The notes under the pieces are model-generated. The model was not told the origin of the DNA. It saw only the letters and a program-made list of their open reading frames with translations, and did not search any database. This document shows positions 14,419 through 21,100 of a stretch of 32,650 nucleotides of DNA, piece by piece (the stretch's first letter is position 1; each line of letters begins with the position of its first letter). The position numbers were made by a program, and so were the translations under genes. The stretch lies in the IMG/VR virus record IMGVR_UViG_2740892015_000008, one strand, 5' to 3'. The DNA comes from a virus. Lineage: Duplodnaviria > Heunggongvirae > Uroviricota > Caudoviricetes.

Positions 14419-15471
14419 TTATTTCCCCACCAGCTCGTTTATCTCTTTCACTGTCTGGTTAAACCGCTCTGACTCAAGCTCAACACCTAAGGCCCGACGC
14501 CCCAGCGCCATTGCTGCTTTTATTGTGGAACCGGATCCCATAAAAAAATCAGCAACCAGATCACCAGGTCGACTACTGGCATTGATTATTTGCCTGAGCA
14601 TATCCGCCGGTTTCTCACACGGATGTTTACCCGGGTAGAACTGAACGGGTTTATGCATCCAGACATCGGTATAAGGCACGGAGACTGATACGGAGAAATA
14701 GCGCCGGAGAGATTTAAACTCATCCAGCAATTCAGAATATTTGCGATTCAGTGAATCATAAGATGCCACCAGCTGGTGGTGTGGTTGTTCCAGTTGTTGT
14801 TCCTGAAACTTCTCTGCCGCTATACGGGAAAACAGTGCCTGTAACTTCCGATAGTCAGCCTCATTCGGCAACTGCCACTGACTGGCACCAAACCAGTGGG
14901 AAACCATATTTTTCTTACCTGTGGCTTCGGCAATTTGTTTTGCCGTTATACCCAGTTCGGCACGAGCATCCCTGAAATACGATATCAGCGGTGCCATTAT
15001 GTGCTGTTTGAGTTCCCTTTCTTTTGCCGCATAGCCGTCACTTTTGCCGCGATATGGTCCCTGGTAATGTTCAGCAAACAGAACGCGCTCTGTGGCAGGA
15101 AAATATGCGCGCAGACTTTCTTTATTACACCCATTCCAACGTCCGGACGGCTTCGCCCAGATGATATGGTTAAGCACGTTGAAACGTTCACGCATCATGA
15201 TCTCAATATCAGATGCCAGGCGATGCCCACAGAACAGGTAAAGGCTTCCGGCAGGTTTTAACACCCGCCAGAACTGGGCCAGACAGTGGTCCAGCCACTT
15301 AAGGTAATCTTCGTCCCCTTTCCACTGATTGTCCCAGCCGTTGGGTTTCACCTTGAAGTACGGCGGATCGGTAACAATCAGGTCAATGGAATCATCAGGC
15401 AGGGACTGAATAAAATGCAGGCAATCAGCGTTGATTAAATCAACACTGTTTATTTTTACAGTATTTTTCAT
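14419..15471 (-). CDS. DNA methyltransferase, N6-adenine/N4-cytosine amino-MTase (permuted motif order: DPPY then FxGSG)
   Basis: 350 aa; catalytic motif IV-like IVTDPPYF near the N-terminus and AdoMet motif I-like FFMGSGST near the C-terminus. Confidence 0.8.
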
Positions 15472-16090: not shown

Positions 16091-17017
16091 ATGAAAGTTA
16101 GAAGCATAGGATTTACAATAAATAACAATAACAAAAATATTAATACCGTTGACGTAATGAATGCTTTTATCAACGCATCAAACAGAGAACACAGTCGCAC
16201 AGACTATACTCGTAAAATTCTCATTTCGGATGTGAATGATTTCTATTATGGATTAGTTGTCACATTCAGAAACCAAAAAAAGAACTGTAAGTCGCAATTT
16301 GTTGATGGTAAATTCCAGCTTAAAATTGAAGATCTTCAAGGAAGTGACAAACTTGCTAATTTCAACTTTTTCTTAATTAAAAAATCTAATCTTTCTGGTC
16401 TCTATATGTATCACCACGGTTCATGCAGTCTGAACACTCTCTTTTCTCATTTAGAAACAATAAGTAATGAATTTATCAGAAATCAAAATAAAGAAGAAAT
16501 AAAAAAACTTGGAGATAAACCAAAACAAAAAGAAGTAACTGCAATAAATAAAAAATACAAAGAAAGACTGACTTTCAGCCTTATGACAAATAAAAACAAC
16601 ATTCAGAGTGTTTTATGTCAATTCAAAGAGATTAAAAGCACAAGCTTTAAATTTAATTATATAGATTTTAAAGGTGGGCCAATGACTGCGCTTGAACAAT
16701 TTGTTAACACCACCACAATAGATATGAATTTTAATTCTAGCGACAGAACAAAAGTGCAACAACTATCTCAGAATCTTTCAAATATTTATAATTCTATGAG
16801 TGGAGTTGCTAAAGCACAGGTTATTGCAGTAAACCATGCAGGAATAGAAAAAACCATTGATTTTATGAACTGCCCTGTTTTTTTTGAAACATACGATTTC
16901 GATATAATTGCCGATAAAGTCAATGGATTGACAAACGATAATTATACAACAAACCCTGTTTTTGATATGATAAAAGAAGAAATGCTGAACGGGACGAATA
17001 AAAATGCCTTTATATGA
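16091..17017 (+). CDS. Hypothetical protein (308 aa), AT-rich, first gene of two-gene cassette; candidate defence/abortive-infection component
   Basis: Long plus-strand ORF in a minus-strand late region; Asn/Lys/Ile-rich; overlaps the start of the downstream gene; no recognisable catalytic motif. Confidence 0.7.
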   Translation: MKVRSIGFTINNNNKNINTVDVMNAFINASNREHSRTDYTRKILISDVNDFYYGLVVTFRNQKKNCKSQFVDGKFQLKIEDLQGSDKLANFNFFLIKKSNLSGLYMYHHGSCSLNTLFSHLETISNEFIRNQNKEEIKKLGDKPKQKEVTAINKKYKERLTFSLMTNKNNIQSVLCQFKEIKSTSFKFNYIDFKGGPMTALEQFVNTTTIDMNFNSSDRTKVQQLSQNLSNIYNSMSGVAKAQVIAVNHAGIEKTIDFMNCPVFFETYDFDIIADKVNGLTNDNYTTNPVFDMIKEEMLNGTNKNAFI

Positions 17018-17552
17018 ATGGCTAATAAATAAAAGATTGAGGTATCAGTACATTACACTGCTTGCATTCTCGATCCTGGCATTGCTTGCACTTTACCTAT
17101 TGTACAGAAACACACCTAAAGTAAGTGTTAACTTTTTTGATTTTTATCATAAAAACTTACGAGGCTATCTCTTCTCCGGTTTTATTTCCGTGGGTTCATT
17201 TTTATTGAGCCTGCATACCTTTGTCATAATAAATTTACGCGATAAGGTTTTTGCAACTCAGGAATATAAGGAAATTTATAGCATTGCCACTGGTATACCT
17301 ATTGACAAAATCAATGATAGTGTACTTTATAAACCTTTAGACAATTTATCCTCATTTATTAATACATCAATATTATGTTCTATCACAACAGCAATTGCAC
17401 AATTCACTATTGGACTTTCAACTAATTTATATGCATGCTTATTTTGCGTATGGCTTGCAATACTAACGGTATTTCTTTTATTACATTGCCTCATCATAAT
17501 CAGACAAAATATTAAAATTTTATTAAAGCAACAGAGAAAAAAAGGGGGGTAA
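17004..17552 (+). CDS. Hypothetical small membrane protein (182 aa, ~4 TM helices), second gene of cassette
   Basis: ATG 17004 lies inside the 3' end of the upstream ORF. Four hydrophobic segments (YITLLAFSILALLALYLLY, LFSGFISVGSFLLSLHTFVII, FINTSILCSITTAIAQFTIGL, YACLFCVWLAILTVFLLLHCLIII) and a basic tail KQQRKKGG. Confidence 0.7.
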   Translation: MPLYEWLINKRLRYQYITLLAFSILALLALYLLYRNTPKVSVNFFDFYHKNLRGYLFSGFISVGSFLLSLHTFVIINLRDKVFATQEYKEIYSIATGIPIDKINDSVLYKPLDNLSSFINTSILCSITTAIAQFTIGLSTNLYACLFCVWLAILTVFLLLHCLIIIRQNIKILLKQQRKKGG

Positions 17553-17923: not shown

Positions 17924-18919
17924 TCAGGCCAGCACGCCAATTGCCAGCGCACGATCGATAAAACGAAATATCAGCTCCAGCTGGGAGCCATACTTCTCTT
18001 CAAATGCCACGGTATCCGCATGCAGCTCGTCGTGATGCTTTCTGCACAAAGGCAACACAAAGAGGTCATGCGCTTTTGTCCCCATTCCGCCCTGACCGTG
18101 ACCTATCAAATGGTGGGGATCATCAGCAGGCTTTCCACAACATACACACGGCTGCGTCTTAACCCAGCTCGTGTACTTTTCGTTAACCCAACGGCGACGT
18201 TTGGGGCGTAACATAAAAGACTCCGGCGACTCCGGATCCACTTTCAGCGTCAGCACCTTTTTCGCTTTATCCTGGATGATGCTGGTGGCAGGAACCGAAG
18301 GCACAAGGTCACACTCCCGGGTGACAGACGGCACAACAGGCGTCGGTAATCTCAGTGCCTTACGGGCTGCACTTTCCGGTAAGGCATCCGCCAAGTCATT
18401 ACGAACCAGCCACCAGCACAGTTCCGGCATTGTCACAACGTGACTGTCATCAAAACCGAGATCCCGACGCACGACAGACAACACCCAGAGGGCACAGTTA
18501 TCCGTTGCCATTGATTCCAGCCGTTCCGTGAACTGATCGCGCAGCAGGTTATCGCAGTGCCAGCACAGACGGATTGCGCCCGGCGCGTGTCGCATTGTGG
18601 TCATGTTCTCGCAGTGCCAGTCGGAATGAGGCCACTGGCAGCCTTTTTCACGAAGTAACCAGCTTTCAAGACATTCCACCCCACCAGCACGACGGATCAC
18701 TGCCTCATTGCGGAATACGGCCCGAACAGCAGGATCATCCGCCAGCGGTTGTGATGCCGCAGGAACGGCACCACTGGCGAAAGATGAATAACGTTCCGGC
18801 TCAGGCTCCAGCAGAACACGTCCCTGCATAAACAGGGGCATCAGCTCTGAACCAGGCCTGAACAATACGATCCCCATACGCGGGGCTATTTCAGGGGTCA
18901 GTAGTGCTCTCACGGTCAC
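17924..18919 (-). CDS. Prophage protein with C-terminal Cys/His-rich motif (YdfU/DUF968-like)
   Basis: C-terminal CVCCGKPADDPHHLIGHGQGGMGTKAHDLFVLPLCRKHHDELH; nin-region position upstream of Q. Confidence 0.55.
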   Translation of the reverse strand: MTVRALLTPEIAPRMGIVLFRPGSELMPLFMQGRVLLEPEPERYSSFASGAVPAASQPLADDPAVRAVFRNEAVIRRAGGVECLESWLLREKGCQWPHSDWHCENMTTMRHAPGAIRLCWHCDNLLRDQFTERLESMATDNCALWVLSVVRRDLGFDDSHVVTMPELCWWLVRNDLADALPESAARKALRLPTPVVPSVTRECDLVPSVPATSIIQDKAKKVLTLKVDPESPESFMLRPKRRRWVNEKYTSWVKTQPCVCCGKPADDPHHLIGHGQGGMGTKAHDLFVLPLCRKHHDELHADTVAFEEKYGSQLELIFRFIDRALAIGVLA

Positions 18920-19737: not shown

Positions 19738-20127
19738 TCAGGCGGCTGCACCCGCCGTTTTCTCGTACTTACTGATGGTGAGCTCGACCTTCCCTTCCGG
19801 GATAACCGGTCCCCACTCCACCAGCATCCTTTTCACCTGACTGTCGTCTTCCCACACACCCGCGTGGGTCAGGACGTCAAACAGTGCCTTGTTATAGTTG
19901 TCCAGATCGCGGATCCGGTTATCCGGAGGAAACAACACGATCTCCACTGAAGCAGGTGCCGACGTTGGTTTTGGCAGACGACGTAACTGCTCAACTATTG
20001 CTGCGCACGCCGCGCTCTGAAATTTTCGCCCCGCCGCGCTTATCAGGCTCTTACCAGCAAATGCCCCTTTGTTGGGGTGTCGCCAGTACGTGTTCACGCT
20101 GGGCGGGAAAGGCAGGATCAGCTTCAT
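19738..20127 (-). CDS. rusA: Holliday junction resolvase RusA
   Basis: 129 aa; LPFPPSVNTYW near the N-terminus and a DLDNYNKALFDVLTHAG acidic catalytic region; nin-region location. Confidence 0.85.
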   Translation of the reverse strand: MKLILPFPPSVNTYWRHPNKGAFAGKSLISAAGRKFQSAACAAIVEQLRRLPKPTSAPASVEIVLFPPDNRIRDLDNYNKALFDVLTHAGVWEDDSQVKRMLVEWGPVIPEGKVELTISKYEKTAGAAA

Positions 20128-20450
20128 ACTTTCAGGCCTCTCTCATGTAACCAGTGAGTTGCACGCAGCCTTGCGTTTTCCTCACCGGCAAGCAGTGAGC
20201 GGATAATCCCGACCGCCTCGCTGTCGTCGTCCTTCACCGCGGTATGAAGCGTGATCCCCCGGGCCACACCACGCTTTATCGTGATGACGCCTTTTTTCTC
20301 CAGTGCGCGAAGATGCTCCACCGCTGCATTCACTGAACGGTATCCCAGCATGGTTGCCACCTCCTGATTGGTTGGCGGGAAGCCACGTTCTTTCTGATAA
20401 GAAATCAGCATATCCAGCACCTGCTGCTGGCATTGAGTTAACGTCGTCAT
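20124..20450 (-). CDS. LexA-like DNA-binding-domain-only protein (no S24 peptidase domain)
   Basis: 108 aa; LTQCQQQVLDMLISYQKERGFPPTNQEVATMLGYRSVNAAVEHLRALEKKGVITIKRGVARGITL parallels the LexA N-terminal winged-helix domain; the ORF ends before any protease domain. Confidence 0.7.
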   Translation of the reverse strand: MTTLTQCQQQVLDMLISYQKERGFPPTNQEVATMLGYRSVNAAVEHLRALEKKGVITIKRGVARGITLHTAVKDDDSEAVGIIRSLLAGEENARLRATHWLHERGLKV

Positions 20451-21100
20451 GCCGCCATCTCCCTGACCAGTTTTTCCGCCTGCTGGCGAACCTGCGCCAG
20501 AAAGGCCTCACCACATGCCTCAAGTTCATCGCGCCCGATGTAGCTGATTGCCGGTCCCTTCCAGGTCTTGTCGAAAACAGCAATAGCACCAGCGAAGAAA
20601 GCTCCTGTCGGCACCTGCTTCTCGTCCTTCGGTATAAACCAGGCAGGCAGTTCAAAACCAATACGCCCGCGAATAAAAGCAATATGATCTGCATCTTCCG
20701 GCCACCACACTTCGCTGGTGGCAGCTTTGATCAGGAAAACATAGCGCCCGCCTTTATCACGCATGGCACTGGCATGCTTCATGATGTAACGCATGCCGGT
20801 GATGTATTCCCCCTCATGCTGACTGGCGCGGCTGTATGGGGGATTGCCAAAGGCAGCACCTTTAAGCTCCGCAAGGCGTTCTGACCAGTCATGCGCCAGC
20901 GCGTTGTCTTCCGCCGTGTAATACGCGGCACATTTGGCGTTATCACCGTCAGTGAACAGATCCAGAACAAACGGGCCAAACAGGGTGTTAATTCCCCAGA
21001 AAATGTTATCCGGCGTGCGCCACTGATCACCCACTTCCTTCAGCTCATGGACTGGTTTGTTCCGCAGTTCCACCAGCGCCTGGCAATATTTATTACTCAT
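20447..21100 (-). CDS. Phage-type DNA N6-adenine methyltransferase (Dam-like, NPPY motif)
   Basis: FGNPPYSRA catalytic motif; ATG 21100 overlaps the upstream stop (TAATG), giving 217 aa; ORF-track start 21133 is an extension. Confidence 0.75.
   Translation of the reverse strand: MSNKYCQALVELRNKPVHELKEVGDQWRTPDNIFWGINTLFGPFVLDLFTDGDNAKCAAYYTAEDNALAHDWSERLAELKGAAFGNPPYSRASQHEGEYITGMRYIMKHASAMRDKGGRYVFLIKAATSEVWWPEDADHIAFIRGRIGFELPAWFIPKDEKQVPTGAFFAGAIAVFDKTWKGPAISYIGRDELEACGEAFLAQVRQQAEKLVREMAA

Follow-up and report, generated by a model that had tools for sequence, protein, structure and literature searches.

The subject of this report is a small gene for a LexA-like protein in a stretch of 32,650 nucleotides of viral DNA (Caudoviricetes; IMG/VR record IMGVR_UViG_2740892015_000008), called here the window, by which the whole of the analyzed stretch is meant. 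The window is a lambdoid prophage of the SfV/mEp460 type, from Escherichia coli, and the gene belongs to its early-right operon, which is read from the minus strand. The first part of this operon holds cro, a CII-like gene (PF06892), Ash/Rha, the gene for a replication protein (HTH_36/DnaD_N), and a PerC-like gene; the remainder consists, in order, of dam (PF05869), the LexA-like open reading frame (ORF), rusA, KilA-N, DUF968/HNH, and the gene for antiterminator Q. An initial annotation of the window had placed the LexA-like gene at 20124-20450, in a translationally coupled run with rusA and dam. These coordinates and the length of the product, 108 amino acids, are correct, and the overlaps that would couple translation are present on both sides: the dam stop codon and the LexA-like start codon share the ATGA at 20447-20450, and the LexA-like stop codon (TGA) shares the ATGA at 20124-20127 with the rusA start codon. 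A GGGAG Shine-Dalgarno sequence lies 8-12 nucleotides upstream of the LexA-like ORF, and no promoter-like or terminator-like match was found on the minus strand immediately bracketing the gene.

The gene is already known and annotated (as SfV orf42, as mEp460_046, and as a member of PHROG 362), and it is very common. Both its previous annotation and its high frequency had been missed initially, as had a characterized homologue, the activator gp6 of phage GIL01 (PMC6182141). The match to PHROG 362 ("transcriptional repressor") has E=1.1e-59 and aligns residues 1-108 with positions 1-106 of 106. The gene block is ~97% identical at the DNA level in 51 phage records. Proteins that are 95-100% identical are present in SfV (orf42, "unknown"), SfII, mEp460 ("LexA DNA binding domain protein"), SfIV, cdtI, phi1720a-02, and many Stx2a/Stx2c phages, and 100% identical ones are annotated in phages SKA5 and Ayreon and in Stx2c phages. 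RefSeq uses the name "LexA family transcriptional regulator", and a single 90% cluster has 2527 member sequences. Among 5426 complete E. coli genomes, 2233 (~41%) carry the gene, with at most four copies per genome, and full-length copies are found in 2223 complete genomes. Full-length relatives at a greater distance (40-50% identity) are found in mEp390, Klebsiella phages, and numerous IMG/VR contigs; a single-protein scan of genome contigs yielded only two informative loci, plus true lexA genes. One of the carriers, phi1720a-02, is the subject of a "bully phage" preprint, in which prophage interference was credited to Cro and the LexA-like gene was left untried.

The DNA-binding domain

Formal alignment bears out the close parallel with the LexA winged-helix domain that was claimed for this protein at the outset. 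It matches the Pfam family LexA_DNA_bind (PF01726) with E=2.9e-19 over the whole model (1-65 of 65), and a phmmer search of the PDB sequences returns E. coli LexA (1lea, 1jhh, 3jso) at E ~1e-15, with 1lea at E=6.9e-16. A single-chain AlphaFold2 model, built from a 17-sequence family alignment, has a mean predicted local distance difference test score (pLDDT) of 83. When this model is compared by Foldseek with the LexA-DNA complex (3jso_B), 68 residues superimpose with a root-mean-square deviation of 1.0 Å at 50% identity.

According to PMC3091678, the residues of E. coli LexA that contact DNA are S39, N41, A42, E44, and E45, which all belong to helix III. Four of these five residues (S39, N41, A42, and E45) are kept in the LexA-like protein, and the base-contact residues S39 and N41 are conserved in the family. 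The wing residues R64-G65 are the same in the two proteins, and the recognition helix of the window's clade, SVNAAVEH, differs from the SPNAAEEH of E. coli LexA at two of eight positions.

What is missing is the second half of LexA. The protein ends at residue 108 and has no match to the S24 peptidase domain (PF00717), and its score with the lexA equivalog model TIGR00498 is 70.8 bits against a cutoff of 110.95, with only model positions 1-91 of 203 covered. The Ser/Lys peptidase is thus absent, as had been stated in the initial annotation; the protein is therefore intrinsically unable to cleave itself and is a paralogue of LexA's DNA-binding domain incapable of self-cleavage.

The C-terminal tail and the former cleavage region

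The protein does not, as first described, consist of the DNA-binding domain only, since residues ~75-103 form a conserved and constrained two-helix tail. In the AlphaFold2 model, the tail helices at 75-88 and 93-103 have pLDDT values of 87-89 and follow a linker (71-75) of low confidence. The two helices are present, with their hydrophobic pattern kept, in relatives from other phage lineages at 38-50% identity, and A97 and L101 are invariant in the family tail. The ratio of nonsynonymous to synonymous substitution rates (dN/dS) is ~0.08 for the whole gene and 0.06-0.14 for the tail (two comparisons with unsaturated dS), values that indicate purifying selection on the tail like that on the DNA-binding domain. 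Because a dimerization element would be expected to consist of an amphipathic helical hairpin behind a flexible linker, the modeled hairpin is taken here as a putative dimerization element that would stand in for the LexA C-terminal domain. As a separate observation, certain database proteins of 140-350 amino acids (P0132, P0149, P0152, P0153, P0156, P0159, P0163, and others) are matched by the DNA-binding domain in two separate stretches; such proteins seem to carry tandem LexA-type DNA-binding domains in one chain and would serve as built-in pseudo-dimers.

It had also been claimed that the protein stops before any cleavage site. In fact, the HMMER alignment to LexA extends to residue 90, which corresponds to LexA residue 86, and sets SLLAGE on the RVAAGE of LexA, so that A88-G89 falls over the scissile A84-G85 bond. 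The family does not keep the Ala-Gly dipeptide: LLVGEE or LLANEE stands there in close relatives, and ER, TR, DD, or other pairs in distant ones. In the AlphaFold2 model, a helix occupies the A88-G89 position. Given the variation in the family, the dipeptide is a relic or a coincidence rather than a functional site, and the idea that A88-G89 is maintained for cleavage, including cleavage in trans, was rejected. Since the homology to LexA extends across the hinge as far as the cleavage position, the family probably descends from a lexA gene that was cut off just past the cleavage site.

SOS boxes in the window

The consensus SOS box is TACTGT(AT)4ACAGTA (PMC4139847). The search for LexA boxes of the form CTGT-N8-ACAG that had been suggested for the window gives, with at most one mismatch, 17 sites against 10.7 expected, a count that is reached by 5 of 100 shuffles and is not significant. 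For this reason, a 20-bp position weight matrix (PWM) was used instead; it was made from a set of E. coli SOS boxes, and its scores are rough. The PWM isolates two clear, near-consensus sites, at 24.4 and 22.8 bits, far above the maximum of 16.2 bits in 100 shuffles. These two sites are the candidate operators of Table 1, one inside the cI-like gene and the other within the first codons of the late-region gene for the N6_N4 DNA methylase.

The cI-internal box is an island of identity within the diverged linker of cI homologues that are 69-76% identical in DNA (ST64B sb38, Klebsiella phage 1 LV-2017, phiNP, Flotzy, and L020, one of the comparison loci designated here by L numbers). Likewise conserved is a TTTAC(C/A) element 17 bp upstream of the box, which is TTTACC in the window. 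The box and the TTTAC region together occupy 24860-24902 of the window and recur at L001:11185, L002:5103, L020:5080, L107-L110:510, and L114:2206. By its sequence and position, the TTTAC(C/A) element looks like the -35 region of an SOS-controlled promoter inside cI, and transcription from such a promoter might possibly yield a C-terminal cI fragment starting at GTG 24923 or ATG 24947. We know of no description of an SOS-controlled internal promoter in a cI linker. The methylase box is found at the same codons in all the methylase homologues that were fetched (L001, L010, L014, L016-L018, L020, and L114).

An enumeration of 5-mer dyads common to four divergent carriers of the LexA-like gene (the window, L010, mEp390, and Kp4865-4) gave three, of which ACTGT-N8-ACAGT is the sole meaningful one. 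Nothing convincing emerged as a non-SOS operator dyad common to the same four, an enumeration that clade-specific operators would escape.

Table 1. Positions of the genes, protein segments, and candidate operators considered in the text
Feature	Position	Strand	Remarks
LexA-like gene (SfV orf42 / mEp460_046 / PHROG 362 family)	20124..20450	minus	108 amino acids; DNA-binding domain plus tail; ATG start
Residues 1-70, winged helix-turn-helix	20241..20450	minus	Helices 6-22 and 28-35, recognition helix 40-52, wing strands 56-58 and 66-68 (AlphaFold2)
Residues 39-52, S39 plus recognition helix	20295..20336	minus	SVNAAVEHLRALEK (LexA: SPNAAEEHLKALAR); from alignments to LexA
Residues 71-108, tail region	20127..20240	minus	Disordered linker 71-75, helices 75-88 and 93-103, LLAGE at 86-90
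Candidate operator 1, SOS box TACTGTATGTAAAAACAGTG	24883..24902		Inside cI-like gene, in the linker between helix-turn-helix and S24 domains; PWM 24.4 bits
Candidate operator 2, SOS box CACTGTTTATTTTTACAGTA	15444..15463		Codons 3-9 of N6_N4 DNA methylase gene; PWM 22.8 bits
dam (PF05869), upstream	20447..21133	minus	Stop codon overlaps LexA-like start codon
rusA (PF05866), downstream	19738..20127	minus	Start codon overlaps LexA-like stop codon
PerC-like (YfdN-type) gene	21100..21594	minus	Most constant upstream neighbor of the module (synteny)
cI-like repressor gene	24674..25366	plus	Helix-turn-helix plus Peptidase_S24; divergent from early-right operon
N6_N4 DNA methylase gene	14419..15471	minus	Late region
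Klebsiella unit	L025:10282-11402 (Kp4865-4) and L026-L105		Promoter with SOS box, dinI-like gene, and LexA-like homologue in fixed order

The operon in related phages

The part of the coupled run that does not hold generally is the association with Dam, which is optional among relatives. No methyltransferase is present in the SfIV, L002, and Citrobacter loci, and an obligatory link between Dam and the LexA-like gene was accordingly rejected. In the L010 group, the dam slot is filled by a D12-class methyltransferase that is unrelated to Dam. There, the N6-adenine methyltransferase gene at L010:7119-7991 (PF02086) occupies the same place, directly upstream of the LexA-like gene, as the PF05869 "phage Dam" at 20447-21133 of the window; the exchange is a non-homologous replacement that preserves the function of the slot. 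The adjacency to rusA is kept in L010-type phages, in mEp390, and in Citrobacter prophages. The constant neighbors are the PerC-like gene upstream and DUF968 and Q downstream, together with rusA except in the Klebsiella clade.

In the Klebsiella clade (Kp4865-4 and 80 IMG/VR loci), the order is fixed: a terminator, a promoter with an SOS box, a dinI-like gene (PF06183, E=1e-25), an ORF of 96 amino acids, the LexA-type homologue (which has an N-terminal extension of 25-35 residues), an ORF of 67 amino acids, DUF968, and Q, all without rusA. The promoter comes after the terminator, and its box, TACTGTTTATTTATACAGTG, spans the -10 region and the start site. An SOS box lies within 1.5 kb upstream of the homologue in 72 of the 80 loci, and a dinI-like gene is directly upstream in 76, the exceptions being mostly truncated contigs. 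Identity among the loci is mostly 94% or higher, so that together they amount to about one observation in evolutionary terms. Nevertheless, the arrangement ties the family to the SOS circuit through its own regulation, and in these phages the late antiterminator Q seems to be situated downstream of a promoter under SOS control.

Among Citrobacter prophages, one with the helix SVN[AS]AVEH has both SOS boxes, and the clade with the helix SVNTIAGH has no SOS box within ±6 kb. This covariation of helix and box, resting on a handful of mosaic loci, is a hint that the two may be connected. In mEp390, whose homologue is 47% identical, there is a DinI-like moron that has an SOS box of its own, TACTGTATATGCATACAGTC, as well as a HumD/UmuD'-like gene (L024:1131-1460 and 1723-2043); by these sequence matches, SOS-related cargo clusters in these carrier phages.

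Two other features of these loci may be recorded. The DUF968 protein of the window (17924-18919, minus strand), which in all clades is conserved downstream of the LexA-like gene, ends in an HNH-type domain (HNHc_6), and its counterpart in a Klebsiella locus (L025:11590-12633) gives a faint match to the P1 Ref-like family of RecA-dependent nucleases (E=0.0076). On the plus strand at 16091-17552, two overlapping ORFs of 308 and 182 amino acids, of which the latter has several hydrophobic segments, form an insertion between Q and the methylase gene and are oriented convergently with Q. They have no match in Pfam or PADLOC, and the pair could be a moron, for example a candidate for exclusion or abortive infection. 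PADLOC gave no meaningful defense-system match.

Interpretation

It is plausible that the LexA-like protein functions as a LexA mimic, which would occupy SOS boxes or phage operators and make repression there insensitive to RecA; in favor of this are the four kept helix III contacts and the wing residues R64-G65, the two high-scoring SOS boxes of the window, and the SOS-box promoter and dinI-like gene that accompany the homologue in the Klebsiella clade. In the model that we prefer, the protein would be a small transcription factor whose gene is expressed as part of the delayed-early operon (PR-side, nin-like) in a lambdoid prophage of the SfV/mEp460 type. The LexA-type winged-helix head would read CTGT-like half-sites, and the C-terminal two-helix hairpin would replace the S24 domain for dimerization. 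Having no Ser/Lys protease, the protein would not be inactivated by activated RecA. Consequently, when the early operon is on, after SOS induction has destroyed the host LexA, the protein would most likely re-occupy LexA-type operators. It would thereby act on the prophage's own pair of SOS boxes, the one in cI and the one where the late-region methylase gene begins, and also, by extension, on those of the host; the outcome would be that repression is re-imposed in a form insensitive to RecA. Of the explanations considered here, the one we place first, tentatively and at appreciably less than an even chance, is thus that the protein, a product of the early operon, is RecA-insensitive and probably a dimer, binds operators of the LexA type, and has as its most likely targets the CTGT-type (SOS) boxes in both prophage and host.

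Several findings weigh against this explanation. The E44 contact of LexA is a Val in the LexA-like protein, residue 44 is variable across the family with Glu lost in all clades, and R28 of LexA is replaced by Asn. Residues 42-45 of the recognition helix depend on the clade: they are AAVE in that of the window, TIAG in the 65%-identical Citrobacter clade, and AVLL in the Klebsiella clade, where both Glu residues are lost, with AAFE and AAAE also occurring. Such variation is not expected if the family as a whole served the SOS box, which is invariant in enterobacteria, and it looks more like diversifying operator specificities. As for the boxes, the DNA around the methylase box is ~95% conserved throughout, so that the conservation of this box is uninformative about selection. 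ST64B, phiNP, Flotzy, and Klebsiella phage 1 LV-2017 have the cI-internal box as well, and none of these phages is among the tblastn matches for the LexA-like protein; host LexA would thus be sufficient as the ligand. Strong SOS boxes are, moreover, common in temperate phages. Finally, the dimer is something that we infer from the appearance of the tail, and no functional study of the protein or experiment on it was found in the literature searched.

The variation in the recognition helix also counts in favor of the main rival, which we hold to be nearly as probable. It holds that the protein is a phage-specific regulator, either an activator or a repressor, that works at a diverged operator of its own, like gp6, and has no role at host SOS boxes. 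Residues 42-45 vary by clade in the manner of immunity specificities, E44 has been lost in every clade, and gp6, which matches the family profile over the DNA-binding domain, provides a precedent as a truncated LexA homologue that recognizes its own palindrome and activates the promoter P3 (PMC6182141). However, the dyad enumeration across four carriers brought up no candidate operator of this kind, although clade-specific operators would have escaped it. Furthermore, the helix of the window's clade is only two of eight residues away from that of E. coli LexA, whereas gp6 has SHKTAHRY, and the late genes are already served by the Q antiterminator.

A bolder form of the preferred explanation ranks below this rival and is doubtful. 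In this form, the protein would be an uncleavable LexA mimic, dimerized through its tail on canonical SOS boxes, that, with the early operon of the prophage switched on, shuts down the host SOS regulon and the LexA-controlled promoters of the phage despite the persistence of activated RecA; in the Klebsiella phages, it would itself be induced by SOS and would form, together with the DinI-like modulator of RecA, a two-component anti-SOS module.

Another possibility, which we consider improbable, is that the protein is not a transcription factor at all but an accessory DNA-binding factor, architectural or targeting, for its companion recombination and replication genes (those of RusA, the DUF968/HNH nuclease, and Dam). 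The overlapping stop and start codons of the LexA-like gene and rusA are kept where the proteins have fallen to 47-65% identity, DUF968 and Q are downstream in every clade that was examined, and the Klebsiella DUF968 protein has its faint match to the Ref family (E=0.0076). On the other side, the Klebsiella clade has no rusA and Dam is optional; synteny in mosaic lambdoid phages is, in any case, weak evidence for functional coupling, and the domain is a sequence-reading winged helix-turn-helix with conserved S39 and N41.

That the gene is merely a functionless, decaying remnant of a captured lexA, as its resemblance to LexA 1-86 followed by ~18 unrelated residues and the "AG" aligned with the cleavage site might suggest, is very improbable and effectively refuted by the data on selection and conservation, since dN/dS is ~0.08 in the DNA-binding domain and tail alike, the gene is full-length in 2223 complete E. 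coli genomes, the tail is kept to ~40% identity in Klebsiella, Citrobacter, and other phages, and the translational coupling is maintained.

Significance

As a sequence feature, the gene is a minor one, having been annotated in dozens of phages (SfV, SfII, SfIV, cdtI, mEp460, and Stx2a/Stx2c phages) and being present in ~41% of complete E. coli genomes, with the same description that the initial annotation reached. Its significance would lie in its carriers: a LexA look-alike that is proof against RecA is borne by Shiga-toxin phages, and in these phages SOS drives both induction and the release of toxin. If the protein binds SOS boxes, it could shape the duration of the SOS response, affect which co-resident prophages, colicins, and SOS-controlled toxins fire, and alter the effect of SOS-triggering antibiotics on the production of Stx. 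Were the protein indeed an uncleavable mimic, then ~40% of E. coli genomes would hold a phage-borne off-switch for SOS.

Comparison with known systems

With E. coli LexA (1LEA, 1JHH, 3JSO; TIGR00498), the phage protein shares the winged helix-turn-helix, at 50% identity, and homology through the hinge to the A84-G85 position. Unlike LexA, it is without the S24 peptidase/dimerization domain and hence without Ser119 and Lys156; P40 and E44 have become Val and R28 has become Asn, a new two-helix tail has been added, and the gene is carried by a phage, with expression from one of the phage's early operons. The product also resembles the 1-84 fragment that is left by LexA cleavage, as both have the DNA-binding domain and the hinge up to the cleavage position and neither has a protease/dimerization domain. 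The natural N-terminal fragment of LexA, a product of breakdown, is short-lived and has a weak affinity for DNA, whereas the phage protein is encoded by a gene under selection and has gained a conserved helical tail. The homologues in SfV (orf42), SfII, mEp460 (mEp460_046), cdtI, and the Stx2a and Stx2c phages belong to the same family and lie in the same block, PerC-(Dam)-LexA-like-RusA-KilA-N-DUF968-Q; what exists for them is annotation only.

Other mobile elements carry anti-SOS factors, such as GIL01 gp7, which binds LexA, and the DinI-like and PsiB-type modulators of RecA. The outcome proposed here, a dampening of SOS, is one that these factors share. However, they are protein-protein modulators of LexA or RecA and have no sequence kinship with the LexA-like protein, which would instead be a mimic that binds DNA. 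In the Klebsiella phages, the homologue shares its operon with a dinI-like gene.

The closest characterized analogue is gp6 of GIL01, a tectivirus (Betatectivirus) of Bacillus. It is a truncated LexA homologue of 66 amino acids that binds its own palindrome, GaCACAnnTGTGaC, which overlaps the -35 region of the late promoter P3, and activates P3; K38 in its recognition helix is essential (PMC6182141). Like the LexA-like protein, gp6 is a phage-encoded LexA DNA-binding domain without a protease, and its gene is among the early genes. A comparison of gp6 with the family profile by hhalign gives a probability of 96.7% and E=3.9e-10 at 33% identity, over the DNA-binding domain only, and BLASTP of gp6 against the LexA-like protein gives no alignment. 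The two also differ in several respects. In particular, gp6 stops at the wing and has no helical tail, its recognition helix is diverged (SHKTAHRY), with K38 at the position of N41 in the LexA-like protein, and it comes from a Gram-positive tectivirus without cI. In addition, the activator function of gp6 has been demonstrated, whereas the function of the LexA-like protein is a prediction from sequence. Since gp6 represents a separate lineage, its role as an activator is not simply transferable to the LexA-like protein. [quoted passage not shown]

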